From the NCBI GenBank assembly GCA_016699935.1, contig CP064992.1, forward strand, positions 870,001-902,000: 32,000 bases of DNA. Reading direction: 5' to 3'. The notes under the pieces were generated by a model. That model made no database searches and was not told where the DNA came from. It saw nothing but the letters and a program-made list of their open reading frames with translations. Position 1 is the first letter of the stretch. The number at the start of each line of letters is the position of its first letter. This document shows, piece by piece, positions 12,704 to 32,000 of the stretch. Both the position numbers and the translations under genes were made by a program. The DNA comes from Candidatus Saccharimonadota bacterium. Lineage in GTDB: Bacteria > Patescibacteriota > Saccharimonadia > Saccharimonadales > UBA4665.

Positions 12704-12745
12704 ACACTCATTATCCCACATACTTACCATTCGTCTATCAAAATT

Positions 12746-12767
12746 AAACTGTACGGCCGTACGGTTT
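12746..12767. repeat. CGGCCG-centred palindrome, copy 1 (aaactgtacggccgtacggttt)
   Basis: It sits within the larger near-perfect palindrome 12741-12772, 38 nt upstream of the Ldh_2 start. Confidence 0.8.
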
Positions 12768-12830
12768 AATTTGCCCATACCACTATCGAATCGGAAAACA
12801 AGTTTTTTGAATCCATCAGATATAAATAAT

Positions 12831-12852
12831 AAACTGTACGGCCGGACGATTT
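12831..12852. repeat. CGGCCG-centred palindrome, copy 2 (aaactgtacggccggacgattt, degenerate)
   Basis: Same left arm as copies 1 and 3. It lies just downstream of the apbE stop. Confidence 0.65.
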
Positions 12853-12871
12853 AAAAATTAGGATATGAATA

Positions 12872-14472: not shown

Positions 14473-15759
14473 ATGAAGTTTGTGAGTTTGGGAACCCAGA
14501 AGACGTAGTCTCCTTCAAGAAGCGCTCTCCCGCGGTATTCCGGCCGATGGCAGTTTATACTACCCTATCGAGATCCCGCCCCTTACCAATCAACAGATTG
14601 CATCTTTGCCGACGCTTGATAACAAAGCAATTGATCATTTGATTCTGAAGGCATGGCTTGGCGATGAAATACCCACCGATGACCTGGCTCGTATTGTCGA
14701 TAACGCAGCGACATTTGAGACGCCCTGTGTGCCCGTCGTCGATAAGCATGTTTAGAGTTATTTCACGGTCCGACGATGGCATTCAAAGATGTGGCAGCCC
14801 GCTATTTGGCGGCACTTATGGGGTATTTCAATGCTAAAACCGGTAAAACTTCAACGGTGTTGGTTGCAACCAGTGGCGACACTGGTGGCGCGATTGCCCA
14901 TGGGTTTGGTGATGTAGCCGGTACCAAGGTTGTTGTCTTGTACCCCAAGGGCCGCGTCAGCCAATTGCAGCAAGAACAATTGCGACGGGTGGCGAACAAT
15001 GTCCATACACTTGAGGTTGATGGTGACTTTGATGCTTGCCAAGCGCTGGTAAAGCAAGCTTTGGCCGATAGGGCTTGCGGAGCCAGGTTGGTCTAACTTC
15101 GGCCAATTCAATTACGGTCGGGCGGTTATTGCCCCAGACGTTGTACTACGCGCGGGCATATGCTCAGCTCGGTGGTCGGAATGATTTGCGCTTTGTCGTA
15201 CCGAGCGGAAACCTTGGGAACATTACTGGCGGAGTCCTTGCGCAGCAGATGGGTATACCGATAGCTTCATTCCTGGCTGCCAATAATGCGAATAATGCCA
15301 TAGAACAGGTATGCGCACGAGGGTAGATTTACGCCATTTGAGGCCGTGCCGACCATGTCAAATGCCATGGATATCGGAGCGCCAAACAACCTGCCTCGTC
15401 TGCAGCGGATTTTCAGGAGTGATCTAGATGCCTTCAGGGCAGACATCAGGACCGCACAGGTTACAGATGAACAAACCGTTGCCACTATCAAGAAAGTCTA
15501 CGAAGACACTGGCTACTTGCTTGACCCGCACACGGCTGTGGCCTGGTGCGCCAGCGAGCAAAATCCAGACGGCAATGTACACGATGTCATTGTATCAACT
15601 GCCGCACCTGAGAAATTTGCCGAAGAAATTCAACGCGACACAGGCATCGTAGTTGATAACACTAGCGAACCAGCCAAGCTCCGTCAAACTCCCGAGCGCT
15701 TCACTTCAATTTCCAATTCCCTCGCTGAACTACGTACATTCATAATGCATAACTCATAA
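14473..15759 (+). pseudogene. thrC: Threonine synthase, with at least 5 frameshifts as assembled
   Basis: Fragments in three frames read VSFKEALSRGIPADGSLYYP, ELFHGPTMAFKDVAARYLA (PLP lysine motif), VATSGDTGGA, LTSANSITVGRLLPQ, VPSGNLGN and SNAMDIGAPNN. Confidence 0.85.
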
Positions 15760-15776
15760 TTCAGCATTCACCGTAT

Positions 15777-16611
15777 ATGTATCACCCCATAAACCCCGAC
15801 AAACCCATCCGCATAGCAGTTATGGGGTTAAGCGGTGTCGGTAAAACAACCCTAGCCCGCTGCCTGCCAAGTAGCCGTTGGTTCCTCTATTCTGCTGATT
15901 ACCGTATTTGGACACATTATTTAGGTGATGAGTTAAATGATTATCTAAAAAATTGGCCATGGAGCATCCTTTACTACGAGATTTGCTAAGGCACGATGCA
16001 ATAACCGTCGAACACCGGGTGCATTTCACTAATTTGTTGGCTACAACAGATTATATGGGTATGCTAGGTGACCCAAAAGCTTTACGGATCGACCCTTCAG
16101 GACTTTACGGCTCGAATGGCATCCCACGCTAATGCAGAAATTGCTTCAACCCTAGATATTGTGCACTTTATCAAACGCGCGGAAGACCTGTATGGGTATC
16201 CTCATTTTATCGCTGATCTAACAGGTAGCTTGTGTGAGGTTGTTGAGCCTAATGACCCATGTGATCCTGTCCTTAAAATGCTTGACGAAAATGTTACGTT
16301 AATTTACATCCAAGCAAGCAAAGAACACGAAGAAACACTCAGATTAAGAAATGTGTCCGATCCAAAGCCCTCTATTACCGACCGGATTTTATTGCAGAAG
16401 AGCTACCTGGCATATTAGATCAATTTGGGGTTGAAGACGTTTCGAAAATAGCACCAGAAGAAGTCGGCGCCTACCTTTATCCTCGCCTATTGGCGCACAG
16501 GGTTGAACGTTATGAAGCTATCGCAGCCAAACATGCCCTAACGCTTACTATGGAAGAAGCCGCCGCCATCCGTTCTGAGGCCGACCTGCTTGAGCGATTA
16601 ACCAAACGTTA
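15777..16611 (+). pseudogene. P-loop NTPase of unknown function, with at least 3 frameshifts as assembled
   Basis: Walker A motif is IAVMGLSGVGKTTLA. Fragments 15777..15989 and 16068..16418, plus a tail ending ..AAIRSEADLLERLTKR*, join into about 275 aa. Confidence 0.5.
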
Positions 16612-17163
16612 AGCGGTGGTTGAAGTCTGCAGAGTAATTTTGTAGATTGAGTAGAGTAAGAGTGCGCTGCCGAGGAGGCTGAAAGCGGCGCCAATGTTGT
16701 GGACTGCGGTCAATGAGGTTGCACCAAATGTGGCGAGAAGCGGGCCAAGTAGTGATGTCCCGCAGGCGGCGCAGCCACTGCTTAGTATGCCAAGCGTGGC
16801 AGCAAGGCCGCTTGTGCCAGTCGCGCGTGCCGAGGCGGTTTTGCGCCGAAGTGCGTAAACAAGTACGGCAATGTTTACCCCGAACAAAAATGCCAATGAG
16901 ATGACACTGACAGAGAGCAAACTGTCAAATGAGGTGAAAAGTGCTTCGTAGCCATAGCTAAAAAATCGCAGTTTTTGCCACGGCGACATATCGGGGTTAG
17001 TCAGTATGTACCCGACGAGTTGGTAGTTGAGCGACCAGATGATGACGGTGAGCATGAGGAACGCAGCGGTGACAGCCAGTAACGTATATGGCGGCTTTGT
17101 TCCAATTATGCGAAGCGTGTTCTTTGTAGCCAGTTTTAGTTTCAGTGAAAGAGGCAGTTTCAT
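16609..17163 (-). CDS. Four-to-five-TM membrane protein with an intramembrane CAAC (CxxC) motif; hypothetical
   Basis: Intact 184 aa containing ..LGILSSGCAACGTSLLGPLL... Its start lies 5 nt downstream of the DsbA-like stop. Confidence 0.55.
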   Translation of the reverse strand: MKLPLSLKLKLATKNTLRIIGTKPPYTLLAVTAAFLMLTVIIWSLNYQLVGYILTNPDMSPWQKLRFFSYGYEALFTSFDSLLSVSVISLAFLFGVNIAVLVYALRRKTASARATGTSGLAATLGILSSGCAACGTSLLGPLLATFGATSLTAVHNIGAAFSLLGSALLLYSIYKITLQTSTTA

Positions 17164-17168
17164 AGGTA

Positions 17169-17865
17169 CTATTGGACTTCCAGTAGTGCTTTATAGATGT
17201 TGTAGGGTTGCGGGCCGACGACTTTTTGGCCACCGATGATAATTGTGGGAGTACCCTGCACAGAGTCGCCTGCGGCTTTGTCTACGGCTGTATTGTAGGC
17301 GTCAGCATGAGTGCGGCCACCCGCGCAGGTCGTAAATGAAGTTGCGTCCAGGCCAGCTTCGCCGGCGAGTTGACCGAGCTTTCAGGACTAAAGAGCTTGC
17401 GCACGGTAGCGTCGGTGTCACCCTTGCTGAGGAAGTTTTCCCACATGTAGCTAAACATTTTGTCATGATAAGCTGTAAATTTGCCCTGCTCTGCCGCACA
17501 GAATGATGCATACAGTGCCAGACCAGAATCTTCACCAAAAGTGGGAATGGCCGGTAGATGATTTTTGCTTTGCCGGTGTCGACCCAGTCACGGCGGATAT
17601 CTTTACCAGCCTTTTCGTGTAGTTCGTTGCACTTTGGGCACTTGTAGTCGCCGTACTCGACGATAGTAATAGGCGCACTGGCCTTACCAATTACAAGTTC
17701 AGTCGGTGTAGCATTTGGTTTGGCCTCATAAACATTTGACGTTAAAGATGGTGTGTTTGTTTCATTTTGCTTAATAGGTATAGTGGAGTCTTTGCCGCTA
17801 AAAACCAGAAAAACCCCTATGACAGCAAGTATTACCAAAAACATCACAATAATCATTTTTTTCAC
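17169..17865 (-). pseudogene. DsbA-family thioredoxin-fold protein with an N-terminal anchor, with at least 3 frameshifts as assembled
   Basis: MKKMIIVMFLVILAVIGVFLVF anchor, EYGDYKCPKCNELH (CxxC) motif, and a C-terminus in other frames reading ..LAGEAGLDATSF..VQGTPTIIIGGQKVVGPQPYNIYKALLEVQ*. Confidence 0.8.
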
Positions 17866-17909
17866 TAACTTAGTATATCATTACCTCAATAACTACTTCC
17901 TTAACGCCA

Positions 17910-18030
17910 GACCCACACTCACTTTCTGGGTGTTATCTTGAGCGAAGTCGAAAGATCCCCTTAGAAATGCGTTTAAGAGATCCCTCCACTTCGGTCAGGA
18001 TGACAACGGGATAAAAAGTGAGTGTGGGTC
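17910..18030. repeat. 121-nt MITE-like element: 15-nt terminal inverted repeats enclosing two opposed hairpin units
   Basis: gacccacactcactt ... aagtgagtgtgggtc. The inner units are tgttatcttgagcgaagtcgaaagatcc and gatccctccacttcggtcaggatgaca, the same unit family as the purL insertions. Confidence 0.75.
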
Positions 18031-18054
18031 AGCTGTCACACCTTACACTAAAAT

Positions 18055-18076
18055 AGATTGTGCGGCCGCACAGTCT
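18055..18076. repeat. CGGCCG-centred palindrome, copy 4 (agattgtgcggccgcacagtct)
   Basis: Same geometry as copies 1-3, with symmetric (compensatory) A>G / T>C changes in the arms. Confidence 0.7.
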
Positions 18077-18086
18077 AAAATCAACC

Positions 18087-18202
18087 TGAGTCTCAAAACC
18101 CCAGGTTGTTATCCCAGCGAACGCTGGGATTCGGATAAATGGACTGGATTCCCGCCTTCGCGGGAATGACAAAAGTACTAGTAGGTCCAGTTTTGAGACT
18201 CA
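18087..18202. repeat. 116-nt MITE-like element: 13-nt inverted repeats enclosing two hairpin units
   Basis: tgagtctcaaaac ... gttttgagactca. The inner hairpins are atcccagcgaacgctgggat and attcccgccttcgcgggaat (the latter extends to ..ggaatgaca). Confidence 0.75.
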
Positions 18203-18228
18203 AGTAAAATCGGTGTTTCATTTTAGCG

Positions 18229-19996
18229 TTAAGGGGTATCTTGGGAGAGGATGAGAACGGCGTAAGCAGGAGATTCAGGGTGGCGATGCGAAATTCATCC
18301 GTCGTGATTTCGTGTATGTCGGCTTCGTGGAAATCGGGGCTGTAGCCTTTCAGGTGCTGTTGAAACGGACTTGCCAGGTGCCGGGGAGTGGCAACTGCAT
18401 TTGGTAGTTTTCGTGGGCTTGATCACCGAAATTGACTATGATGAAGACATCATCACCTGCTCTTCCCCTGTCCCAGCGATGGTACCCGAGCACGCCATTG
18501 TTGTCGTCTTGGTGAAAAACAGCTGTACTTTGCCCGAGCAGCCCTGCAGTATTACCATGTCGGTTGAGGCGAAGATCTATCAAGTGACGATGTGCCAGTA
18601 CGAAACCATCGTATTTTTCTGCTTTTACCCACTCGAGCTCCTGCCAATCGTTAAAGCTCCCTTCTTGCAAAAATTCTTGACCCTGCAACAGCATGGGTAT
18701 GCCCGGTGAAGTAAGCATTACAGCGTCGGCTAGCAGTGATTGTTCGCGGGCATGTATATCGGCCGCATCGCCCGAGCTAGCCGCTTCGTTCAGTCGAACG
18801 GAACCGTTGGCGGCGGTGTCGTGCGAATCGCTAAAGATTATTTTTTCGTAAGCGTTGCCGTTGTAACGGCGCTCTAGTTCGTAGCGGACTCCCGCCAGTG
18901 TACGCCCACCGCGTAGACCTAGGCCGTCACGCAGAGCGTGCGGAAAACCTAGTTCCCACTGGGCATCAAAGGCGCAGCCTTGCTCAGTGCGCGGTTTGGT
19001 GAGGTAGGCGCTATTAGCACAGTCTTCGGCAATCATGATAGCCGATGGTTTGATTTTGTGCGCCAGCTCCACGATATCTTGCAGTAGGTACCAAGCATGG
19101 GATATGTCGTGAGCGGGATCGTTATCGTGACCTTCGGTGTTGCGCATGTATGTGGTGCTATCGACTCTCAAGCCATCAAGTCGATATTCACTAAGCCACA
19201 TCGTGACATTGTCTAGTATAAATTGACGTACTTCAGGCCGGCCATAGTCGGGTCGTCCACCCCAGGGTGTGTCGCCACGGACGTCATTGTAAAAATATAT
19301 GCCACCCCGGCCGTTTTCACTCCATCCGTCAAATTGCCAGAGGTCGGTTTCACCCGAGAAGTGGTTGTAGACGACATCGAGGATGACGGCAATGCCTTTT
19401 TTGTGGCATTCGCGAACGAACTTTAGTAGCCCATGCCGTCCGCCGTAGGCGTTTTCGACCGAGAACAAGTGGTTTGGCGCATAGCCCCAGCCGTACCCGT
19501 GTGCCATACTCGTCACCGGCATCAGCTCTATGACGTTGACGCCGAGCTCTTTTAGGTAGTCTAGTTTTTCCAGCGCATCATCGAAGCTGCCTATGGTCGC
19601 TGCATCGGGTCTGTTGAATGTACCGACATGGAGTTCGTAAATGATTTGCTCTTCTGGTGGAGCAGGCGAAAAGCTATCACCTTCCCAGTCAAAATTGGGG
19701 TCAATGATGACCGAGGCGCCATTATCTGAAGTCGTCAATTGCTGAGCGCGCGGATCGTTGCGCGTCAAGACCTGGCCGTCAGCCGTGGTAATCAGGTAAA
19801 CATAGTTTTGTCCGGACTCGATATTTTTAAGTCGAAGTGACCAGTAGCCGTCGGACTCGCTTGCCATGGCAAGTTCTTTGCCTGCGGCGACAGTTCCAGC
19901 TAACGCAACAGAGCGAGCAAATGGCGCCCACACCCGAAATTCTGTGTATTCCCCATGCCCAGTCACCCCCAAATTCTTTTTAAGCTGATGCGTCAT
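18229..19996 (-). CDS. GH13 alpha-amylase-family enzyme with an N-terminal CBM48 (branching-enzyme / TreZ-like). It has an in-frame TGA at 18350-18352 plus one later frameshift.
   Basis: FRVWAP...YWSL..Y.Y is CBM48-like. The catalytic regions are VIYELHVGTF, GWGYAP, AVILDVVYNH, LDGLRVD, MIAEDC and FSDSHD. After the TGA the same frame continues KGYSPDFHEADIHEI.. and ends ..PAYAVLILSQDTP* at 18229. Confidence 0.85.
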
Positions 19997-20015
19997 TGCT
20001 CTCTAGTATGAAAGC

Positions 20016-20331
20016 ATGAGCGGTTTTAGGCAACCCCAGATTAATGCGGGCTTTCGCGCCCGCACAGCGACCAGGACCTTTTGCTGCCAAAAGGTCCTGG
20101 ACCTAAAACCAGGCCAAAGACTTCACCTCTTGGTCAGCTCTTGTCAGTTCTATAACCAACACGACAACTCGTTCGCCCTGGATTGCCACCGGCAATCCAG
20201 GCCTCTCTCAGACAAGTCGTGCCGCCTGCCGGAAGTTGTAGAGCCTGACAACATCTGAGCCAGGAGTCTCCGCATGGCCATCATTAGTTAATGTCGCTTA
20301 CACGACAAATATTTGCGGCCTTAAGGCCGCA
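20016..20331 (+). ncRNA. Element A: hairpin-rich structured element paralogous to 30130-30505 (candidate ncRNA; strand tentative)
   Basis: Hairpins: gcgggc/gcccgc (20046-20063), ccaggacctttt/aaaaggtcctgg (20071-20100) and cctggattgcc/ggcaatccagg. A conserved 3' block spans 20232-20331 and ends in gcggccttaaggccgc. A TAGTAT box lies at 20004-20009, and a strong terminator follows at 20342-20375. Confidence 0.4.
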
Positions 20332-20341
20332 TGGAATAATT

Positions 20342-20375
20342 AAAACTATTCTCGGATTTATTTCGAGAATAGTTT
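20342..20375. terminator. Strong bidirectional intrinsic terminator (13-bp perfect stem), downstream of purH and of element A
   Basis: aaaactattctcg-gatttatt-cgagaatagtttt. Two further hairpins (20401-20422 and 20428-20455) sit between it and the purH stop. Confidence 0.7.
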
Positions 20376-20459
20376 TATAAGTTCCCAGGAAAGAGCAGCC
20401 GGAGCTGCGGCTATGCAGCTCCGCGCGATGAGAGAACCTATCTCGGTTCTCTCATTATC

Positions 20460-22092
20460 CTAGTGGCCGAAGAAGCCGCGGCCTAGTTTGTCGGGGAGCA
20501 TGGTGGTAGAGACGTTACGATCGGCGAGGGTTTTCACGACTTCTGGGTCTTTGACGGAGCCAGATGATGTCAGGATGGTGGTTATGCCGGCGTCGGCCAG
20601 TACTAGTGGGCCGTCGGGGAATGGGAAGAAACTGTCGCTGTAGGCTGTGGCACCCTTTAGGTCGTGGTCACGGCTGGTTGCGCGGGTGACGGCAAGTTTG
20701 GCTGCCCCTACCCTGTCTTGCTGGCCAACCCCATTGCCGAGCATGCGGCCGTCTTTGACTATGCAAATGGTGTTACTATTGCTGGTGCTACCGACTGCCC
20801 AGGCTTGTACCATGTCGCGTTGTTGCTGTTCAGTGACGGTGCCATTTTGTTCTATGTAGTCGGCCTTCAGGTCGACAACAAAGGTGTAATTTGGCTGTAC
20901 TAGCATACCACCGCGAACATTGCGGTAGATTGGCGCGGTTTCGAGGGATTCTTTTGTAAGCGTTGCCAGGGCTGGGTTGGTCACGATGCGCAGTTTTGCC
21001 CGACTCAATATTTCCATAGCTTCGGGTGTCACTTCACTGCCGACTACGCCGTCCAACAGGCGGTTTTGACCGTCTGGCATATGGTACTGCATGAGAGCCG
21101 TCGCAACACTGGCATCGATGACGCCATTTAGCATGACGACACCGCCGAAGATGGCTATTTCGTCGCCCTCTAGCATTTTCTGGACTGCTTCTACAGCTGT
21201 GTCAGCCACCCCTGCCCCGCAAGCATTGCCGTGCTTGACACCTACGGCAATGGCTGGGACTTTGCCGAAATTCTCCTCAAACCCAGCGGCGATGTGCGTG
21301 ACGGTTTGTAGCAAACGGTGCATGTCAGTTTCGTTGATATAGCTCAGCTCCCACCCTTTTGGTGGGTAAACTGGTCAAGCCCAAGTGGGTCGGTGGCCAC
21401 GCGGTTATCGGCGTATAGCCCAGCTGGGGTTTGCCAAGGGTTCTCGCCGTATTTGGTGGGTGCAACACGGCGGCCAATCCAGCCAGCGACTTCATCACCA
21501 CCATGGTAGCGGGCAGAAATCATAATGTAGCGGGCGCATTCGTACTCGGCGATGGCACAAAGTTCGTCTCGGAAAGCTTTTTCGTCGGGTTTACCATCTG
21601 TTAACCAGGTCTGTAGCACTTCACTTCGTTGGTCAGCGCGAGATAGCACAATGCGCCGGGCTTTTGCTCCGGCTCGCAGCATGGTCGGACCACCGATATC
21701 GGTTTTTCGATGACACTTTGCAAGGTGGCAGTGCCGCTGGCAATCTCTTCCTCTAGTGGGTACATATCGACTGCCACGAGGTCGATGAATGGAATGCCGC
21801 GCTCTTTAAGCTCGGCTAAATCTTCTGGCTTCTCGGCATCGGCCAGCAAGCCACTGTGAATTTCTCTCGATAGCGTCACGACGCGGTGCCCAAGTATTGC
21901 CTCCCCGCCAACCAGCTCTGCGACATCCGTAACCGGCACGCCAGCCTCGGCAACGACTTTCGCCGTGCCACCCGACGATATGATATTCCAGCCCAGCTCA
22001 TGCAAGCCCTTGGCAAACTCGGCTATCCCGGTTTTGTCGTACACGGAAAGCAGTGCGTTCTGGTTTGTTTTTAGTAAGTGGTCGATAGACAT
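20460..22092 (-). CDS. purH: Bifunctional AICAR transformylase / IMP cyclohydrolase (PurH), with two frameshifts (T5 run at 21703-21707; about 21345-21360)
   Basis: N-terminal MGS-like domain reads ALLSVYDKTGIAEFAKGL..ISSGGTAK..DLVAVDMYPL..(TDIGGPTMLRAGAKA after correction). The C-terminal AICARFT domain reads ..VGVKHGNACGAGV...AYSDSFFPFPDG...RGFFGH. SD aaaggag lies upstream of ATG 22092. Confidence 0.9.
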
Positions 22093-22133
22093 AGTGCTCC
22101 TTTAACTTGAGAATGATTAGTGATTTTTCAATG

Positions 22134-22879
22134 CTACACGTTTACTTGTGTGTGCTTGTTTATCGTGTGTATCTGTACATCTTGGTTAGTTAGGCTAAAG
22201 GCCATAACTGCCACAGCGACGCGCGTATCGGGGTTGAGGCTATTCCAAAGCAGATTCGCCATATCTTCAGCATTCCCCATGAGTGGCAAAACAAATGGGT
22301 CTTCGTTGTAAGGCGATAGAATACCGCTATCTTCTCCTTGGTAGGTGTGGATTGCGCGTCCGATGCCGTCATGCAGAGGTAACTCATTTCCATCGAGTGT
22401 ATCGTATCGCCAGGTTTTATGAATCGCTTCGTCTCCGACTTTCTTGACAATAGAAATGCCCGCAACTTTTTGTCCAATCTCTACGAAACCAGAGATCCTG
22501 GGTGTGTAGTTAGGACTATCCGGTTCATACAATAAAGTAATCGCGGCGTCTTCAAATGATTTTCCGCAGCGAAGATACCTACCAAAAGTATCTGTCTGGT
22601 TGCCGTTTGAAACTACAACGCTGTCGTCGAATCTTCGAATAGCATCATAGATTGTGAGATCAGGATCACCAACTCCTTGGCCGGGATCGTGCGGTGCGGT
22701 GCTCTAATGTTGTCTTGAGTATCTAGTATTCGGTTTTGCGATCCCGCACTACGGCCACCGATACAATAGCCAATAATTGCCACATCGTCGTAGTAGCCTA
22801 CAACGAGTAAGCGGCCTGGATATGGGTTAGCCCGTAATATGTCCAAGTTTGTTTCTGGTGAGCTAACATATTGAGACAT
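22134..22879 (-). CDS. purO: PurO-type (archaeal-like) IMP cyclohydrolase family protein, with one frameshift near 22705-22715
   Basis: YPGRLLVVGYYDDVAIIGYCIGGRSAGSQNRIL, then (after the shift) DPDLTIYDAIRRFDDSVVVSNGNQTDTF..LLYEPDSPNYTPRISGFVE. SD aaggagag lies upstream. Confidence 0.65.
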
Positions 22880-22894
22880 TTTATCTCTCCTTGA

Positions 22895-25800
22895 TTATGA
22901 ATTATTAATCTTTACCGCCCACTCATATGCATTCATGAACATATGCATCCAAGGTGACGCTACGCCCCAATCGGCGGGGTGCCAGGAAAGCTGGCGGGTT
23001 AGGAAGGCGCGTTCGGGGTGAGGCATAATGATGGTGGCGCGGCCATCTGGTGTGGTTAGGGCTGTGATGCCATGTGGCGAGCCGTTGGGGTTGGCTGGAT
23101 AGGCTTCGGTGGGGTTGTGCTGGCTGTCGACGTATTGCGCAGCGACGAGGCCGTTTTTCACCGCATTTGCCCTTTCTGCATCTGTAGTAAACATCGCATA
23201 ACCTTCACCGTGAGCGGTCGGAATCGGCAGGACTGAACCCTCCATGCCAGCGAAAAATATGGACGGCGTTTTGTTTAGCCGGACTTGCGGTAGTCGTGCC
23301 TCGAACCGCTCACTACGGTTCTGGAGGAAGCGCGGCCAGGCTTCTGCACCAGGGATAAGTTCTTTGAGCTCAGAGAGCATTTGGCAGCCGTTGCAAACAC
23401 CGAGGCTAAAGGTATCGGGACGTTCGAAGAATGATTTGAACTGGGCGCGAAGTTTTTTGTCAAAAAGTATGGTCTTGGCCCAGCCACCGCCAGCGCCCAG
23501 AACATCGCCGTAGCTGAAGCCACCACAAGCGACCAATCCGACAAAGTTATCGAGATTAGTATTGCCGGCAATTATGTCATTTAGGTGGACATCGACAGCT
23601 GTGAAACCGGCGCGGTCAAAGGCGGCGGCCATTTCTATTTGGCCGTTAACGCCTTGTTCGCGGAGGATGGCGACCCGTGGACGATCCTTTTTCGATTTTC
23701 GAAGAGGGGCTCGCCCCTCTTGAGGTGAACTCATCGCTTCGCTCGAGTCCAGCCTCCACTCCCCCGCTCGCTGCTCGCTCGCGCAGCCGCTACGCAGCGG
23801 TTCGGCCGCTGTCGCGGCCTCAGAGACACTGGCGCTCGAAGCCTGAGCGTCTTGTGTCCGTGCTGTATCTTCGCTCGCGCCGCCGCTACGCAGCGGTTCG
23901 GCCGCTGTCGCGGCCTCATTTGTTTGATTTCTTAATGCAGCTACTCTTATCTCATAACTCTTATCTCTTAACTCTAGCAATGGGTTTAGCCCCGGATCGT
24001 CGTCATTACGTATGGCGGTATATTCTTCTTCGGCGCAGGCGGGATTATCGCGCAATTTTTGTATGCGGTAACTTGTCTCGGCCCACCACTGTTCCAGCTG
24101 CGCCCGAGTATTTTTGTAGACCACTTTCTGGCCGTCTCGGAATATAACATCCTGTGTTTTTGATGGTACTCCTACGACATACGCATTTTCACCAAACACC
24201 TGGGATACGGTTTTTGCATCTGATGATTTCACCTGGATGACGACACCGAGCTCTTCATTGAAAAGCTTTGCTATGGTCTCCTGCCTTGTCATTCCTGCCG
24301 AAGTGGAGGAATTTTCTTTTAATTTTTCAGAAGATCTTTCGATTACTCCTTCGGCTTTGCTCAAGATGACAGTACTAGGAAGTGTAGTGAGGTCTATGTC
24401 GAGGCCGCAGCGGCTGGCAAAGGCCATTTCGCACAGGGTTGTGAAAAGACCACCATCGGAACGGTCGTGGTACGCCAGAAGGTAGTTTTTAGTTTTTCGT
24501 TTGTAGAGGGCGGCCGCAAAGTTTTTCAAAATGGCTGGGTCGGCGTCGGGAGTTTCGCCGCCAAGTTCGTTGTAGACCTGCGCAAATGCGGAGCCTCCCA
24601 GTCTTGTGTGCCCACCGGAAAGATCAACGAAAAGCAATACGGAATCCTCTGTAGTATCGAGCTGCGGAGTTAACGTTTTCGTTACGTCGCTTACGGGGCT
24701 AAAGCCGGTGATAATGAGGCTGAGGGGTGAGGTGACTGATTTGGCTTTGTCGCCGTCTTGCCAGGTGGAACGCATACTTAGGGAATCTTTGCCGACCGGT
24801 ATGGTGATGCCGAGGGCGGGACAGAACTCTTCGCCTACAGAGTAGACAGTGTCGTAAAGTGCCTGATCTTCTTCACCGTGACCAGCGGCTGCCATCCAGT
24901 TGGCTGATAGTTTTATGTCACTGAGCTTTTCGATGTCTGCTGCTAGCATATTGGTGATGGTTTCGGCGATAGCCATTCGACCCGAAGCGGGTGCGTTGGT
25001 GACAGCGAGTGGGGTACGTTCTCCCATAGCCATAGCCTCGCCGTGATCGCTGTCGAAGCCGACGGCAGAGACGGCGACATCACTGACTGGCACTTGCCAC
25101 GGACCGACCATTTGGTCTCGGGCGATTAGCCCGGTGACGGTTCTATCGCCAATGGTGATGAGAAATTTCTTACTGCCCACGGCTGGTATATGCAAAACGC
25201 GCCTGGCGGCTTCTTCGAGGTCGATATTTTCCAGCCAGCTATCCTTTGACGTCATTCTGAGCGAAGTCGAAGAATCTACCAGTTCGTTGTTTTGTGAAGA
25301 TCTTTCGACTGCGCCTTCGGCTTCGCTCAAGATGACAGTGGTGGCGATAGGGCTGGGCGCGCGGGTGAATTCGCGGGTCATTTTGGGCGGTTTGCCGAAG
25401 AGCGTGCTCATAGGCAAATCGACAGTGTTATTTTCAAGTAAACTATCGTGGACAACGAGCCGATCTTCGTCCACCGCCGTGCCGATGATACTGTAAGGGC
25501 AGCGCTCCCGCTCGCACAATGCAGTGAACTCGGCGACATCTTTTCGTGGAGACCTATGACATAGCGCTCTTGGGCTTCGTTGCACCAAATTTCCATCGGT
25601 GACATGCCAAGGTCGGCATTGTTGATTTCGCGCAGTTCTACGTGGGCACCAAGTCCGGCATCGTGCACCAGCTCTGGTACGGCGTTGCAGTAGCCACCGG
25701 CACCGATATCGTGAATCATGACGATGGGATTTTCTGCACTGGCCCAACAGGCGTCAATAACTTCTTGGGCTCGGCGTTCCATCTCGCCATTGCCACGTTG

Positions 25801-27174
25801 GACAGATGCGAAGTCTAGGTCGGCGCTACTGGAGCCAGTTTGCATGCTACTTGCAGCTCCACCACCCAGACCGATTAGCATAGCTGGACCACCCAAGATG
25901 ATGATTTTATCGCCAGGTTGCAATTTGCCCTTCTGGACATGCTGATCACGGATGTTACCTAGGCCACCGGCAATCATGATAGGCTTGTGATAGCCACGGA
26001 CTTCGTGGCCATCACTTTGCTCGTACGTTCTGAAGTAGCCTGCGAGGTTGGGACGGCCGAATTCATTGGCAAAGGCTGCTCCTCCCAATGGTGCTTCGAG
26101 CATTATCCCCAAAGGCGAGGTAATGCGGTCGGGTTTGCCGTAAGGCTTTTCCCACGGTTGTGTTGCATCGGGAAGTTGCAGGTTTGAAACGCTAAAACCG
26201 GCTAGCCCCATTTTGGGCTTAGCACCGCGGCCAGTGGCGCCTTCGTCACGGATCTCGCCACCCGTGCCAGTGGCGGCTCCAGGAAACGGTGCAATTGCCG
26301 TCGGGTGATTGTGCGTCTCGACCTTGATAACAGTGTGGATTGGTTCCTGTGTGTAGCTGTACTCGTGTGAATCTGGGTTTGGGAAGAACCGCCCAGCAGT
26401 CGGGCCAGCCAGCACAGCGGCGTTATCCGAATAAGCGCTTAGTACATTCTCGCCACCCCATTCAAAGGTGTTACGGATCATTTTGAATAAACTTTTGGGT
26501 TTCTGGCCGTCTATGACCCAGTCGGCATGGAAAATTTTGTGGCGGCAATGCTCGCTGTTTACCTGGCCAAACATCATCAGTTCAGCGTCGCTGGGGTTAC
26601 GACCAAGCTCGGTGTAGGCGGCAACCAGATAATCGATTTCGTCGGCGCTGAGCGCCAGGCCCTGCTCGGTATTGGCCTTTTCGAGAGCTTCTTTGCCACC
26701 TCTCAGTACGTCGACAATGATGAGCGGTTTTGGTTGCGGGTCAGCGAAGAGAGCTTCGGCTGCCTCGAGCGAGTCGAGCACGGCTTCTGTCATGCGGTCG
26801 TGGAGGAGCGGCGCCACCATGTCACGCTTAGCAGAGTCTATGTAGTAAACAATACCGCGCTCAATCCGATTTACCTGGTTTAGTCCGGCGTTATGAGCGA
26901 TGTCGGTCGCCTTGCTCGACCACGGTGAAATGGTACCCGGACGTGGTACAACCAAATACATTACCCCTGACCTCTTACCAGTGTACGGTGTATCGTAAGT
27001 CAGTAATTTGGTAAGTTCAGCTTCATCATGGGCAGAAAGCTTTGATGCTACATCGACAAAGTGGACAAACTCTGCGCTCACGTTGCGCACATTTTTGTCG
27101 ACAGCCGCTAGGAGTTTGAGCAAACTATTTGCTTTAGAATCGGATAACGCGTTTATTCCTTTATAAACCTGCAC
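22895..27174 (-). CDS. purL: Large single-chain FGAM synthase (lgPurL: N-domain, synthetase and glutaminase). It has one frameshift at the T4 run 25541-25544 and carries three repeat-derived in-frame insertions.
   Basis: [104 protein letters not shown] and MPHPER are present. The GTG start at 27174 overlaps the purM stop. Confidence 0.9.
23775..23918. repeat. Two 48-nt direct repeats (23775-23822 and 23871-23918; 1 mismatch) separated by 48 nt, inside the purL linker
   Basis: tcgctcgcgc[a/c]gccgctacgcagcggttcggccgctgtcgcggcctca. Each repeat contains the small hairpins ccgct/agcgg and ggccgc/gcggcc. It translates as [12 protein letters not shown][G/C]ASE, twice. Confidence 0.85.
23941..23977. 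repeat. Single CTCTTA/TAAGAG-family arm inside the purL coding sequence
   Basis: ctactcttatctcataactcttatctcttaactctag. It translates (minus strand) as [13 protein letters not shown]. Confidence 0.75.
24288..24370. repeat. Double-hairpin palindromic element inserted in-frame in purL (copy 2)
   Basis: gtcattcctgccgaagtggaggaatt...gatctttcgattactccttcggctttgctcaagatgac. It translates as [28 protein letters not shown]. Confidence 0.8.
25251..25337. repeat. Double-hairpin palindromic element inserted in-frame in purL (copy 1; 87 nt = 29 codons)
   Basis: gtcattctgagcgaagtcgaagaatc...gatctttcgactgcgccttcggcttcgctcaagatgaca. It translates as [29 protein letters not shown]. Confidence 0.85.
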
Positions 27175-28271
27175 TAGCGCACCTCCAGCGTCTCACCGCC
27201 AAACGTGATATTAACGGGTTCAATCACAACCTGCTTTGGCCCGGTCTCTACCACGCCACCTTGCCATGCTTTTATACCACATTTTTGAGCGATTTCTATG
27301 GTCTGGATGGCCTGATCTGCCGGTACAAATACGGCATACCCCGCGCCCATATTATAGTTGTGATACATATCTTCAATGCTGTTGCCTGAATGTTCTTGTA
27401 TGAATGCAAAAACAGGTTGAGGCGTACCGATATCTGTCATTCGATATGTTAGCTTTGGTTTGCCGCGCATGAGTTTGCGCCAACCATGCCCAGTAATATT
27501 TGAAACATAGTGTAAGTCAATATTTTTCGCAAATAGTTCCTGCAATACTTCTGCGTACAAGATTGTTGGTTGTAGCAGTGCCACACCAAACTCATTACCA
27601 TCTGATAATTTAGTGTGGTAGCCATCCGGAAGCTGCTCGGCAATTTGTCGTGTCATGCTTATACCATTGGCATGTACACCGCTCGATTCAAGGAGGATAA
27701 TGGCATCGCCGGCAGCTAAGTTGGCATCTTGCACTATTCGACTTTTAGGTGTGATAACGCCAAATCCACTGCCTGCAAATTCAAGTGCGCCGGGAGTAAC
27801 AATACCTGGTAGTGATTGCGTCTCACCTCCGCCCCATACCACGCCAGCCTTGTCACACGCCGCACGCCAGCCTTTTATAAAGTCGGTTGTCAGTTTGTTG
27901 TCGGCTAGCCAATCGTATGATTGTGCCGACCAATAGGCGTTTAGTACAACTGGTTTCGCACCAACGCTAATCAGATCATTTATCACTGTTGCCACCGTGT
28001 CTTGCGCAATTGCAGCGAAATACGATGTGCCGGTGTCTTGGTAAACTTTCTGAGCGATTAAGCTTTTTGTCCCTAAGCCTTCTTGTACGAGCGCACCATA
28101 ACGATCTCCCATATCAAACACATAAGCTGACTCACCACGCGTGCCAGAAACTTCGCTGTAGCCATATGGCATATTGCTTGCCGTAGCCAAACCTTCTTTT
28201 TGAGCCAGAACCTTAGCCGGGTCGGCCAGATCATAATTTACCGATGCGTAGTAATCAAGTTTTTTCGTCAT
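27174..28271 (-). CDS. purM: AIR synthase (PurM-family) protein
   Basis: The ORF is intact. The likely start is ATG 28271 (MTKKLDYY), which forms an ATGA overlap with the purE stop. PurM-like N- and C-domains are present (..GGETQSLPG.., ..SSGVHANG.., ..NITGHGW.., ..[10 protein letters not shown]..). It is divergent from E. coli-type PurM. Confidence 0.75.
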
Positions 28272-28789
28272 GATTTGTTCTCCTTTAGATATGTTTCCCA
28301 ACCTTCGGTTTGGAGTTTGGCGTCGGTTTTGAGGACGCTGTCGTGTTGTTTTTGGCGAAAAGTTTCGTAGCGGGTTGCGAGGTCAGTATCCATGAGGGCC
28401 AGGATTTCTATGGCCAGCAAGGCACCGTTACGGGCGCCGTTTTCGGGCATGGTTGCCAGTGGTATACCCGGGGGCATCTTTATACTGGACCAAAATGCTT
28501 CGTGGCCGTGATGGTCACGCTTCACAGGTATGGCTATGACTGGTAGTGTGGTGTGGCTGGCTGTCATACCGGGCAAATGCGCCGATCCGCCTGCTCCGGC
28601 GATGATGACCTTGAGTCCCCGTTCGGCTGCTGAGCTTGCGTAGGCACCCATTTCCTCTGGTGTACGGTGTGCAGAAATAACCCGAACCTCGTAGGCTACG
28701 TTAAATTCGTCTAGCAGCTTTGCGGCTTCGCTCATGATATCGAGGTCACTATCCGACCCCATGATGATTCCTACTAATGGCTGGCTCAT
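28268..28789 (-). CDS. purE: N5-carboxyaminoimidazole ribonucleotide mutase (class I PurE)
   Basis: VGIIMGSDSDL, ISAHRTP, IIAGAGGSAHLPGM are present. Intact 173 aa, next to purK. Confidence 0.9.
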   Translation of the reverse strand: MSQPLVGIIMGSDSDLDIMSEAAKLLDEFNVAYEVRVISAHRTPEEMGAYASSAAERGLKVIIAGAGGSAHLPGMTASHTTLPVIAIPVKRDHHGHEAFWSSIKMPPGIPLATMPENGARNGALLAIEILALMDTDLATRYETFRQKQHDSVLKTDAKLQTEGWETYLKENKS

Positions 28790-28806
28790 ACAGCCTCCTT
28801 TCCTTT

Positions 28807-28897
28807 TAGAGTTATGAGATAAGAGTTATGAGTTAAGAGCCCAAGCCAGTAAGGTACTATACTTTTCTTATCTCTTATCTCATATCTCTTAACTCTA
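28807..28897. repeat. TAAGAG-family inverted-repeat element in the purK-purE intergenic spacer
   Basis: The left arm is tagagttatgagataagagttatgagttaagag. The right arm is cttatctcttatctcatatctcttaactcta. The spacer is 27 nt. Confidence 0.8.
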
Positions 28898-28904
28898 GTT
28901 CCCC

Positions 28905-30049
28905 TCATATGCTCAGTAGCCCCCGTGCTTTCACGGCGTTTTCACGTACTGTTTGCAAGTCCAGCCCGGTGACTGTGATATGCCCCATTTTGCGGTCGAC
29001 TTTGGTCGGGCTTTTGCCGTAAAGGTGCAGGCTTGCACCTGGTATGGCCAATACATCAGAGGTTCCTTTCACCTGGGTTTCGCCGTCGCGTTCGCCGAGG
29101 ACGTTAATCATGACAGCGGCTGGCACTAGTAGCGATGTGTCGCCTAGTGGCAGTCCGGCAATGGCGCGAATGTGCTGCTCGAACTGGCCTACGCGGCAGG
29201 CTTCGGTGGTATAGTGGCCGCTATTGTGGACGCGCGGAGCTATTTCGTTGACTAAAACGTCGCCGTCTTTGGTGAGAAACATTTCTATACCGAATGTGCC
29301 GGCACCACTGAGAAATTCGGCGACTTGCCGAGCGATGGCCTCAGCTTTTTGCGTGACCTCGGCCGAAACTGGGGCTGGCACGAGCACCTCGGTGCAAATA
29401 TTGCGTTCGTGGATAGTCTGAACGATGGGGTACAGGGCTACATTACCGTTCATGTCGCGGGCGACCATAACGGCTAATTCGCGCTCGAAGTCGATCAAAC
29501 CTTCGGCGTAGAGTGCTTTGCCCTCAAACTTACCAAGCGCTACGTCCAGCTCGGCCTGGGAGTGGACGACCATGTTGCCCCGACCATCGTAGGCGCCGTG
29601 CCGAGTTTTGATTATCATGGCACCGCCAAATGTGGCAAGCGCATCCCGGGCGGAGTCTGCCCCTGTTATTTCGGCAAATGGGGCTAAAGGCACGCCTTTT
29701 TCTAGCAAAAATTGTTTCTGGGCGTATTTGTCCTGAATAAGACGAATGGTGGACGGTGAAGGATTTATGACTGCCCCGCTCTGTTCGATCTTGGCCAAGG
29801 CATCGGCGTCAAGATGTTCGATTTCGACTGTGATGTAATCTGCTCTAGCGGACAACTCCTAAGTGCTTTTTCGTCGTATAAATTGGCGACAATTTGGCGG
29901 GCCCCAACTTGCTCGGCCGGACAATGTTCGCCTGGGTCGACAACTACAACATCAAAGCCGAGAGGTTTGGCGGCGAGAGTTAGCATGCGACCTAGCTGGC
30001 CTCCGCCGACAATACCAATGGTAGGTTTTTTTGCCGCTCCCTGTTCCAT
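28905..30049 (-). CDS. purK: N5-CAIR synthase (PurK, ATP-grasp), with one frameshift near 29858
   Basis: IGIVGGGQLGRML, YITVEIEHL, ATP-grasp core and ..NEIAPRVHNSGH.. are present. ORFs 29765..30049 and 28905..29855 join. Confidence 0.9.
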
Positions 30050-30056
30050 TACTTAC

Positions 30057-30062
30057 AGCATA
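30057..30062 (-). promoter_or_regulatory. -10-like TATGCT, 7 nt upstream of the purK ATG
   Basis: Minus strand reads atttcctgTATGCTgtaagtaATG. The layout parallels the purC and EamA upstream regions. Confidence 0.4.
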
Positions 30063-30129
30063 CAGGAAATATGGGGGTCGCACAATGGGCGTAAAAATGA
30101 AAGTGGTATGACAAATAGTATATAGTGTA

Positions 30130-30505
30130 TTGTCCGACGGATGGCAGTTCTCGGACTGCCAAGCCGACCAACTTTGGGCAGCCAAAGTTGGACAAAGCTG
30201 CCGGGGAGAATGCAAACGACCGGCTTACTTGAAATTTCTTTTGACCTGTTTGGTTCCTGCGAAACTCCCCGCCTTTGGCGGGGTCAAACATTCTCGTCAC
30301 GCATGCAGTCAAAAGAAATTTCAAATCAGTCGTTATGCATCCCCGGGTTTCAGCGACCCAACCCCGATTGCTTCGAAGTGAGCACTCACTGCAGACCGAT
30401 AATTACGAAGTTGTAGAAGCCGACAACATTCTGGCCGGGAGCCTCCGCATGGCCCCCACTAGTTACATCGCTAACGCGATAATAATTAGCGGCCTTACGG
30501 CCGCA
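30130..30505 (+). ncRNA. Element B: hairpin-rich structured element paralogous to 20016-20331 (candidate ncRNA; strand tentative)
   Basis: Hairpins: ggcagt/actgcc (30143-30160), ccaactttgg/ccaaagttgg (30168-30191), the long-range pair ttgaaatttcttttgac/gtcaaaagaaatttcaa (about 30228-30324) enclosing ccccgcc/ggcgggg, and a conserved 3' block at 30407-30505 ending in gcggccttacggccgc. TAGTAT/TATAGT boxes lie at 30116-30126. Confidence 0.4.
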
Positions 30506-30538
30506 CTCTTATCTCATATCTCTTAACTCTTAACTCTA
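30505..30538. repeat. Single CTCTTA-family arm directly after element B
   Basis: actcttatctcatatctcttaactcttaactcta. Confidence 0.7.
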
Positions 30539-30655
30539 TCTTGACTCTTCTCTTGACTCTTACCCCCATTTGGCTCGTTGCAAGTTGATTGTTTCTTGAT
30601 CTTGCACGTTGATCTTTCTTGATTCGTGCCTCATGACTCTTGCCAGGTTTTTCTG

Positions 30656-30661
30656 TATACT
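30656..30661 (+). promoter_or_regulatory. -10-like TATACT, 6 nt upstream of the purC ATG (leaderless-type)
   Basis: cttgccaggtttttctgTATACTggaagcATG. Confidence 0.45.
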
Positions 30662-30667
30662 GGAAGC

Positions 30668-31623
30668 ATGAAACATATTCTTGAGGGGACGGATTTCAAG
30701 CTGCCGGGTTGCCAGGCGGTTTTACCATGGCAAAGTGCGCGATGTCTATGACTTTGGCGACCGGCTTATGCTGGTGGCCAGTGACCGCTATAGCGCATTT
30801 GACCGGATATTGGCAGGGGTGCCCAACAAAGGTGCGCTACTAACGGCAACGAGCCAGTGGTGGTTCGAGCAGACCGCTTCGATAGTGCCAAATCACATCA
30901 TTTCTTACCCTGACCCAAATGTGGCATATTGTAAAAATACGAAGTTATCCCGCTAGAAATGGTGGTGCGAGGCTATATAACGGAGTTACCAACACCTCTC
31001 TGTGGCACACCTATTCGAACGGACAGCGCGATTACGGCACCTTTCAGCTTCCTGACGGGCTAAAAAAGAATGATAAACTACCCGAGCCAGTGCTGACCCC
31101 AACTACCAAGTTTGAGATACATGACCGCAATCTTACTCCGGCCGAAGCACTTACAGAAGGGCTTTTGAAGGATGAAGTTTGGCAACGTGTTAGTGACTAT
31201 GCCCTGCAACTTTTTACTTTTGGCCAGAAGGTGTCCGAAGCCAAAGGGTTGCTGCTGGTCGACACTAAGTACGAGTTTGGTCTGACGCCACAAGGTGAGA
31301 TTATTCTAATAGATGAAATACACACGCAAGATTCATCGCGCTATTGGCTGACAGAAAGCTACCAACAGCGGATTGACGAGGGTGTCGAACCAGACAATTA
31401 CGACAAAGAATATCTGCGGTTATGGTTCAAGGAGCGTTTCGACCCTTATGCAGATACGCCTGCACCAGAAGTACCAGCCGAGATCATCGAAGAGTTGGAG
31501 CGCCGATACCGGTTTGTTTACGAAAGTTTGGCTGGCCAGGCGTTTGAAGAACCCGATACAACGGACATTGTGAAGCGGATTGAAGCAAATGTACTGCGTA
31601 CACTGGGACAACATGAGAGTTAA
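30668..31623 (+). CDS. purC: SAICAR synthetase (long form), with two frameshifts (about 30710 and about 30950)
   Basis: YHGKVRDVYDFGDRLMLVASDRYSAFD, LEMVVRGYITG (after correction), LLLVDTKYEFG and IDEIHTQDSSRYW are present. The stop codon lies inside a TAAGAG repeat arm. Confidence 0.9.
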
Positions 31624-31705
31624 GAGTTATGAGATAAGAGATAAGATTTGTGCTTCGCACAGCGTATTCCCTATCTTACTCCTTAACTCTTATCTCTTAA
31701 CTCTA
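31615..31705. repeat. TAAGAG-family inverted-repeat element overlapping the purC stop codon
   Basis: The left arm is gagagttaagagttatgagataagagataag. The central hairpin is tgtgc-ttc-gcaca. The right arm is cttactccttaactcttatctcttaactcta. Confidence 0.8.
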
Positions 31706-31722
31706 ACCGCTAAGGAGCATGC

Positions 31723-31830
31723 ATGAGCTTGCAGCCACTAGATTTACCTACCCCAACTAAAGAAGGAGAAATGAAAAAAATTACCCATTACCCTGTCGCC
31801 TGTCACCATACATTTACCATTATCCATTAG
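31723..31830 (+). other. 35-codon ORF whose first 12 codons duplicate the purB start (relic or leader ORF)
   Basis: MSLQPLDLPTPT-KEGEMKKITHYPVACHHTFTIIH*. SD aaggag lies upstream. The first 36 nt match 31924-31959 with 5 mismatches. Confidence 0.3.
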
Positions 31831-31923
31831 CCATGAATCCCGGGCCAATAGTGACAGGTTAATTGCGTATATTAGGCCACAGGCCACAGGTTACAAGCCA
31901 ATCTTCCCGGAGGGGAGCTTCTC

Positions 31924-32000
31924 ATGACTCTGCAACCACTAGATTTACCCACCCCAACTGACGACAACCGTTTCAATGCGGTTGATCCGCTCGATGGCCG
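31924..32000 (+). CDS. purB: Adenylosuccinate lyase, 5' end (runs off the window)
   Basis: MTLQPLDLPTPTDDNRFNAVDPLDGR resembles the E. coli-type PurB N-terminus (..AVSPVDGRY..). SD ggagggga lies upstream, and the gene follows purC. Confidence 0.65.
   Translation, partial: MTLQPLDLPTPTDDNRFNAVDPLDG

Follow-up and report, generated by a model that had tools for sequence, protein, structure and literature searches.

How do short palindromic DNA repeats come to lie, in frame, inside the coding sequence of a purine-biosynthesis gene? The question is raised by a 32,000-nt stretch from a Candidatus Saccharimonadota bacterium (GenBank assembly GCA_016699935.1, contig CP064992.1, positions 870,001 to 902,000 of the forward strand), hereafter the window. 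In it the gene purL, encoding a large-type phosphoribosylformylglycinamidine (FGAM) synthase, contains two such elements, E1 and E2. Our analysis indicates that these are very probably copies of a short, non-autonomous palindromic repeat family that has colonised purL in frame, in the manner of Rickettsia palindromic elements (RPEs). All coordinates are those of the window, in which the gene and its insertions are located as follows.

22895-27174, minus strand: large-type purL, identified from its open reading frames (ORFs) and their translation, homologues and Pfam.
25250-25338, minus strand: E1 (site 1), a hairpin with TGTCAT...ATGAC ends and an 86-nt GTCAT..ATGAC core.
24287-24371, minus strand: E2 (site 2), with TGTCAT...ATGACA ends and an 83-nt GTCAT..ATGAC core.
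23684-23980, minus strand: site 3, where about 86 aa of composite sequence are inserted in frame in the linker that precedes the glutaminase domain, as recognised from alignment, repeats and folding.

On the coding (minus) strand E1 reads cTGTCATCTTGAGCGAAGCCGAAGGCGCAGTCGAAAGATC...GATTCTTCGACTTCGCTCAGAATGACg and E2 reads TGTCATCTTGAGCAAAGCCGAAGGAGTAATCGAAAGATC...AATTCCTCCACTTCGGCAGGAATGACA. A reading of the window made from the letters alone (the sequence-only reading) had placed the two elements in frame within purL at 25251-25337 and 24288-24370, and both were found there. As it had also claimed, the stretch 25251-25337 comprises 87 nt or 29 codons, which are translated in the purL frame to 29 aa; E2 is translated to 28 aa. 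The elements had been described as double hairpins of two units, but each is a single long imperfect hairpin formed by two inverted arms. One arm in each of E1 and E2 carries a 12-nt extension (CCGAAGGCGCAG in E1). E2 is degenerate or chimeric, with a left arm of the E1 type and a right arm of the CCGAAGTGGAGG type. Folding of the mRNA strand of E1 gave -32.1 kcal/mol (z = -4.0). The third and larger in-frame repeat insertion, at approximately 23684-23980, had been overlooked.

The same family was found between genes, where the sequence-only reading had already noted one copy, E3. That copy is real, and a related one, E4, was added.

17931-18005, plus strand: E3, intergenic, of the same family as E1 and E2, with a 73-nt core.
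18107-18171, plus strand: E4, an intergenic hairpin of the sister subfamily TGTTATCCCAGCGAACGCTGGGAT...CCCGCCTTCGCGGGAATGACA, in the same spacer as E3.

The 73-nt core of E3 is not a multiple of three and has stops in 5 of the 6 frames; it folds at -37.6 kcal/mol (z = -5.2). E4, a 63-nt copy beginning about 100 nt beyond E3, is open in 3 of the 6 frames. The 16-mer GTCATYCTGAGCGAAG occurred 6 times in the 32-kb window at up to 3 mismatches, as against 0.32 expected, and none of 100 shuffled sequences reached 6. A 22-mer of the other arm type occurred 3 times (0.00 expected). Thus a dispersed palindromic repeat lies both within and between genes, with two intragenic and two intergenic copies in the window and more intragenic ones in relatives. 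The length of family members is 63-110 nt, their ends are TGTCAT...ATGACA and their inverted arms measure 16-40 nt.

The restored window PurL (see below) was aligned with 120 homologues to determine whether E1 and E2 are insertions. At site 1 the modal segment of 26 residues was found in 108 of the 121 sequences and the window has 59; 10 sequences, the window included, exceed the mode by more than 8 residues. At site 2 the mode is 14 residues (105/121), the window has 45, and 8 sequences including the window exceed the mode to that extent. About 90% of the 121 sequences thus have no extra residues at sites 1 and 2, and the claim that the elements are insertions rather than ancestral sequence holds. 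At site 3, before the glutaminase domain, the window segment measures 106 residues against a mode of 20, and an excess of more than 8 residues is seen in 20 sequences including the window.

The nucleotide sequence of the arms is conserved in a manner not seen in the gene around them. Identity between the window and its relatives at four-fold degenerate purL sites was 0.35-0.43, that is, saturated. Nevertheless, the left arm of E1 was identical in 39 of 39 positions to the left arm of the site-2 element of relative L005, and E1 matched the site-1 element of relative L002 in 37 of 39 positions of the left arm and all 26 of the right. The loops between the arms were divergent across genomes. The arms are therefore elements at the DNA level, not ancestral or ordinarily evolving protein sequence, because they are 95-100% identical while four-fold degenerate sites are 35-43% identical, because the same arms are also located between genes, and because different subfamilies, in different phases and probably orientations, fill the same site across genomes. 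Arm similarity across such a saturated background points to one of three causes: that the elements spread recently, that other copies converted them, or that the DNA or RNA sequence itself is under selection.

Occupancy of the sites was followed in seven relatives whose DNA came from assemblies at NCBI, JGI and ENA, with codon alignments for L001-L005. At site 1 an element is present in the window, L001, L002 and L005 and absent from L003 and L004; at site 2 the window, L001, L003 and L005 have one, and L002 and L004 do not. Relatives that differ in this way share 79-82% amino-acid identity. The site-1 element of L002 is the 86-nt one of the window, read in an identical phase. L001 carries at both sites another subfamily, GTCATCCCGAGCGCAGTCGAGGGATCC, in two phases that are read as VIPSAVEGS and SSRAQSRDP. 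In L005, site 1 holds a third type, TGTCATTCCCGCGCAGGCGGGAATCC, which is shifted by one base and translated as CHSRAGGNP. The site-1 copy of L001, which like E1 measures 86 nt, has its 12-nt extension on the opposite arm and matches the reverse complement of E1 better (0.64) than its forward sequence (0.58), which suggests that it is probably in the opposite orientation. Among the three relatives P0008, P0012 and P0026, which share about 90% nucleotide identity, site 1 is filled in P0008 only and site 2 in P0008 and P0026 only. At site 2, P0012 (L144) has an unrelated 24-nt perfect palindrome, GACAAGGACAGTCCTTGTC, read as TRTVLV; this palindrome is also present in P0005, P0006 and P0025, which have no TGTCAT element there. 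The purL genes of relatives with inserts of the same kinds as those of the window are intact and encode 1314-1499 aa.

The N-terminal half of PurL has two more insertion sites in relatives, one after QPWE and one within YEQ..GYHKP, both of which are unoccupied in the window. In P0008, P0011, P0012 and P0016 the N-terminal inserts have the peptide DFLxEERTEPxxNTxKxVPExKNSL in common and may belong to a further repeat family; the insert of P0010 at the position equivalent to QPWE is a different one.

All 10 intragenic copies, from six genomes, were free of stops in the frame used. E1 is open in 3 of the 6 frames, and several other frames are open in the same intragenic elements too. Translation would be the likeliest fate of the inserts, since splicing or bypass would give no reason for a preserved frame and for openness. 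In order, the Pfam domains of PurL are FGAR-AT_N, linker, AIRS_C, FGAR-AT_PurM_N-like, AIRS_C and GATase_5. To locate the inserts, Pfam and AlphaFold2 were applied to an 882-aa C-terminal PurL fragment (63 sequences in the model; predicted template modelling score, pTM, 0.78). Positions in this fragment were as follows.

E1: residues 70-98, between the first AIRS_C and FGAR-AT_PurM_N-like (124-283).
E2: residues 392-419, within the second AIRS_C (311-465), past the LDIDL strand.
Site 3: residues 522-617, immediately before GATase_5 (621-875).

In the model, residues 67-99, covering E1, were coil with a predicted local distance difference test score (pLDDT) below 50. Means of 10-residue blocks over E2 were 52, 50 and 67, and pLDDT was about 29 at residues 547-617 of site 3, while many flanking core blocks reached 90 or more. 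Alignment to Salmonella PurL structures begins just past site 1 (chain residue 636) and has gaps between residues 918 and 921 (site 2) and between 1028 and 1044 (site 3). Both peptides are thus predicted to be low-confidence coil protruding from a confident core, E1 between subdomains and E2 in a loop. The idea that they occupy surface linkers is consistent with the predicted model and the Pfam boundaries.

These observations suggest how the present arrangement may have arisen. The elements would have landed in purL after the core of the gene had formed. They would persist because the added length keeps the reading frame, because the arm sequence is free of stops in several of the six frames, and because the positions, an inter-subdomain linker and a surface loop, are permissive. 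They would be transcribed and translated within PurL, each as about 30 hydrophilic, disordered residues, and PurL activity would be retained despite them. They may have moved by transposition in trans, by recombination between relatives or through gene conversion from other copies.

As assembled, purL does not form one continuous frame. The two elements are in frame, as the sequence-only reading had it, but the gene it treated as a single reading frame is split into two overlapping ORFs, 25408-27174 and 22895-25747, by a shift at one position.

25541-25544, minus strand: A4 homopolymer at which the purL frame shifts by 1 nt, recognised from translation.

Addition of one A at 25541-25544 restores a PurL of 1426 aa, the junction of which presumably resembles that of other PurLs. 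In the database it was most closely matched, with identities reaching 79%, by phosphoribosylformylglycinamidine synthases of Candidatus Saccharibacteria/Saccharimonadales. Frame switches relative to a relative's intact orthologues were found in at least eight genes of the window (dsbA-like, amylase, hyp278, purC, purH, purK, purL and thrC), spread over 14487-31998.

14487-15756: thrC.
17172-17850: dsbA-like gene.
18270-19996: amylase gene.
20463-22092: purH.
28908-30049: purK.
30635-31611: purC.

The frame-switched genes have no internal in-frame stops, and most of their aligned pieces are about 60-94% identical to the orthologues. This pattern is the mark of an assembly rich in indels and not that of pseudogenes. 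With so many genes of the window switching frame, the purL frameshift is probably an assembly indel rather than a sign of gene decay. Identity of purL between the window and its relatives was 0.86, 0.91 and 0.51 at the three codon positions, which shows strong purifying selection on the protein. That PurL is an essential enzyme is an assumption for a Saccharibacterium.

This bears on the possibility that purL is a decaying pseudogene and its inserts are junk. The gene is frameshifted in the window, purH, purK and purC are interrupted too, and many Saccharibacteria have no de novo purine synthesis. However, genes outside purine synthesis (amylase, dsbA-like and thrC) switch frame in the same way, with no in-frame stops and mostly about 60-94% identity, which is the pattern of assembly indels, and on this pattern decay of purL was rejected as the main explanation. 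Both inserts and the sequence between them are in frame, identity by codon position shows strong purifying selection, and the same kinds of insert are found in the intact purL genes of relatives, so that decay is very improbable. An error-prone assembly might also have produced the inserts themselves, as chimeras induced by repeats, and the window is visibly error-prone. Yet elements were found at the same sites in 6 of 7 independent assemblies from three sources, with flanking purL in frame in each; only L004, in which sites 1 and 2 are vacant and the site-3 insert alone is shared, departs from this. We consider chimeric assembly to have almost no chance of being the explanation. Nor is it at all plausible that the inserts are lineage-specific loop extensions of PurL which evolved in place with no mobile element, although the site-1 inserts of the nearest clade (P0001, P0005 and P0010) resemble one another in peptide pattern, agree in their length of 86 nt and could represent a single old event. 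Such extension is contradicted by the presence of the same sequence between genes. In addition, the inserts are palindromic, the same arm recurs at a different site of a different genome (39/39) where neutral sites are saturated, and one DNA motif is read in different phases as the distinct peptides VILSEA, CHSRAGGNP and SSRAQSRDP.

A more serious alternative, still unlikely in our judgement, is that the hairpins are kept for a role at the RNA or DNA level and the peptide is a by-product. They might cause ribosomes to pause for co-translational folding of a 1300-aa, four-domain enzyme, or might serve as RNase or regulatory sites. Nucleotide conservation of the arms far beyond neutral, third codon positions included, is what such a role would predict; recent spread or gene conversion, however, would explain it as well. 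All three insertion sites are at or near domain or subdomain boundaries, but this location is expected without function because any tolerated insertion survives in permissive linkers. Several unrelated palindromes at the same sites in relatives (such as that of P0012), the strongly structured site-3 insert (z = -3.95) and the presence of the same 16-mer in many phyla, among the matches listed, also favour a role of this kind. Against it, the inserts are absent from about 90% of homologues, close relatives included, and pairing in E2 is mostly lost.

In-frame colonisation by a palindromic repeat family is the reading that we prefer, and several observations weigh against it. E2 folds at -20.5 kcal/mol (z = -1.3), scarcely better than shuffled sequence, and its arms have diverged. 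No clean pair of filled and empty alleles was found; where close relatives differ, as in the P0008/P0012/P0026 trio, the flanking linker differs too. Since filled and empty alleles thus differ in the surrounding linker as well, exchange of segments by recombination may be part of the cause of patchiness. No target-site duplication and no direct repeat was found beside E1, E2 or E3, where the ends cannot be fixed and the flanks differ between alleles. Within 137 kb of Saccharimonadales DNA, 9 of 12 copies were located in purL, a concentration that is biased because the loci were picked by similarity to element-bearing PurL. No autonomous partner was found; this was looked at in locus L042 only, with no systematic search, and there no transposase ORF of at least 100 aa lies between inverted units 2 kb apart. 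By eye from translations, the units of L042 flank a PEBP-like ORF and a CxxCH-rich (multihaem-like) ORF. Finally, the indel-rich assembly of the window leaves some uncertainty in the exact lengths of the elements.

The family was compared with known systems of similar repeats, beginning with RPEs. RPEs (Ogata et al. 2000 Science 290:347; 2002 Genome Res 12:808) are summarised in a recent review as palindromic repeats of about 150 bp lying in frame in unrelated metabolic genes (PMC10969869), and RPE insertions are predicted to be compatible with the three-dimensional conformation and function of the protein (PMC10969869). The present elements resemble them in being short palindromic repeats which occur between genes and in frame inside genes and which add a peptide while the ORF is kept. 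As RPE insertions are predicted to be compatible with the fold, so the inserts here are predicted to form disordered loops. RPE-derived peptides may also come from arms with GTCAT...ATGAC ends. Unlike RPEs, the elements belong to a Saccharibacterium of the candidate phyla radiation and not to Rickettsia, are 63-110 nt long rather than about 150 bp, and have hit one gene at three sites, which in sister genomes hold different subfamilies. The earlier suggestion of RPE-like behaviour is supported, as an analogy of behaviour, in that the elements are in frame, open, palindromic and also intergenic. We regard them as RPE-like in behaviour and do not claim that they belong to RPE families, because the host belongs to the candidate phyla radiation, the repeats are shorter than RPEs, and the likeness to RPE-1 to RPE-10 described here is one of behaviour.

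Bacterial MITEs, or miniature inverted-repeat transposable elements, including ERIC, BOX, Coxiella QMITE1/2 and the Anabaena MITEs (PMC10969869, PMC5896051), are likewise small, have terminal inverted repeats and no transposase ORF, form stable stem-loops, and occur in many copies, some of them intragenic and frame-preserving. The typical MITE measures 100-400 bp (PMC5896051), so that the present elements are at the small end of the range. They differ in that no target-site duplication or TA ends are evident and no cognate insertion sequence was identified. QMITE1 is reported to be genome-specific (PMC5896051), whereas the arms here are common to many phyla. With neither a target-site duplication nor an autonomous partner found, membership among the MITEs is incomplete. 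Small copies of QMITE2 have been called "essentially REP elements" (PMC5896051), REP standing for repetitive extragenic palindromic. The REP/REPIN elements, which are mobilised by REP-associated tyrosine transposases (RAYTs), are imperfect palindromes of similar size, mostly extragenic and without target-site duplication. REPs are extragenic by definition, however, and the copies inside purL do not share that location. The heads of REPs also differ from the TGTCAT/ATGACA ends described here. Coding palindromes of Nematomorpha mitochondria (PMC6649704) are inverted repeats in protein-coding genes with both arms translated; they are organellar and up to 284 bp long, and the beginning of that abstract mentions no dispersed family that also lies between genes.

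What is new here is the lineage and the element family, the kind of behaviour being known already. In-frame palindromic colonisation has been treated as a hallmark of Rickettsia; its presence in the free-standing pur operon of a Saccharibacterium makes it more general than that genus. Sister genomes in which the sites are filled, empty or differently filled provide a natural series on the movement of elements and the tolerance of an enzyme for them. For annotation, the warning is that length variation in proteins of the candidate phyla radiation can be derived from repeats.

The arm motif is spread well beyond this lineage. A scan for GTCATYYTGAGCGAAG with one genome per species returned at least 120 rows, which show breadth and not counts. 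The matches listed came from Acidobacteriota, Bacteroidota, Nitrospirota, Verrucomicrobiota, Chloroflexota, Bacillota, Planctomycetota, Omnitrophota, Gracilibacteria, Patescibacteria and another Saccharimonadales genome. A partner arm was located within 260 nt for 43 of 134 units among these matches; many of the paired units listed are canonical hairpins of 65-90 nt, such as GTCATCCTGAGCGAAGCGAAGGATCT...AGATCCTTCGCTTCGCTCAGGATGAC, and most are intergenic. It is conceivable, though improbable, that TGTCAT...ATGACA hairpins form one conserved pan-bacterial class which homes to, or is retained at, hairpin-like or end-like sites. Linkers would then turn over through subfamilies, orientations and phases, and the mRNA hairpin might aid expression or folding. 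If true, this would be an undescribed and widespread way to remodel protein linkers, beyond the curiosity of a single lineage.

Other searches gave little. At the gathering score no Rfam covariance model matched in the window, and in five loci with canonical copies Rfam returned only sub-threshold microRNA-like hairpin matches. The literature search gave no relevant full-text match to the arm sequence or its typical translations, no earlier description among work on the candidate phyla radiation, MITEs and palindromes, and no account of the cross-phylum spread of the terminal motif. The concatenated E1 and E2 peptides used as a protein query returned no candidates. A profile of seven peptide sequences searched against 1.84 billion proteins gave 19 matches, mostly short ORFs across repeats, which are unusable as a census; one of them was, by eye, a fragment of an AMP-binding-type enzyme whose readable sequence ends just past the element. 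A metagenome scan for the extended arm of the E1 type gave 18 contigs, mostly GC-rich and by eye not recognisably of this lineage, and almost none of their arms lay in credible genes.

One canonical family hairpin lies in frame in a different gene, at L054 2764-2840 in a Bacteroidales metagenome-assembled genome, between the AAA+ lid and the Fis-type helix-turn-helix of an NtrC-type regulator. An AVILSE stretch inside the Pfam AAA_lid_14 match (318-388) coincides with the hairpin's first arm. Because AVILSE is presumably a native motif of sigma-54 activators and the AAA_lid_14 match spans the stretch, it is ambiguous whether this hairpin is an insertion or a coincidence.

Site 3 of purL has a different composition from sites 1 and 2. 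Of an AGAGTTA/AGAGATA heptamer-repeat family it contains a single arm, at 23943-23976, together with a GC-rich unit of 48 nt that bears a palindrome and is present twice (23775-23822 and 23871-23918), 96 nt apart. The region is strongly structured (z = -3.95), and inserts related to it were found in L004/P0003 and others.

Other repeats were also found in the window. The AGAGTTA/AGAGATA heptamers form a second hairpin family with inverted arms of about 30 nt in spacers of the pur operon. A third, short-palindrome family, TAAACTGTACGGCCGTACAGTTTA, apparently lies near gene ends or between genes, with one copy between E3 and E4. There is also a 59-nt direct repeat of 80% identity.

28805-28897, 30491-30538 and 31616-31719: AGAGTTA/AGAGATA hairpin family.
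12730-12769, 12815-12854, 13764-13803 and 18039-18078: TAAACTGTACGGCCGTACAGTTTA palindromes.
20232-20290 (amylase/purH spacer) and 30407-30465 (purK/purC spacer): 59-nt direct repeat.

The neighbours of purL in the window differ from those in relatives. The ORF at 22134-22532, directly downstream of purL, matches the inosine monophosphate (IMP) cyclohydrolase-like family PF07826 at profile positions 101-187; the same position in four loci, L002-L005, is occupied by a gene for a 23S rRNA intervening-sequence protein (PF05635). The purM gene (27177-28271) is just 50% identical to that of L003, the figure for the neighbouring pur genes being mostly about 72-94% over the main aligned pieces, and from this comparison the window purM may have been replaced by a foreign copy.

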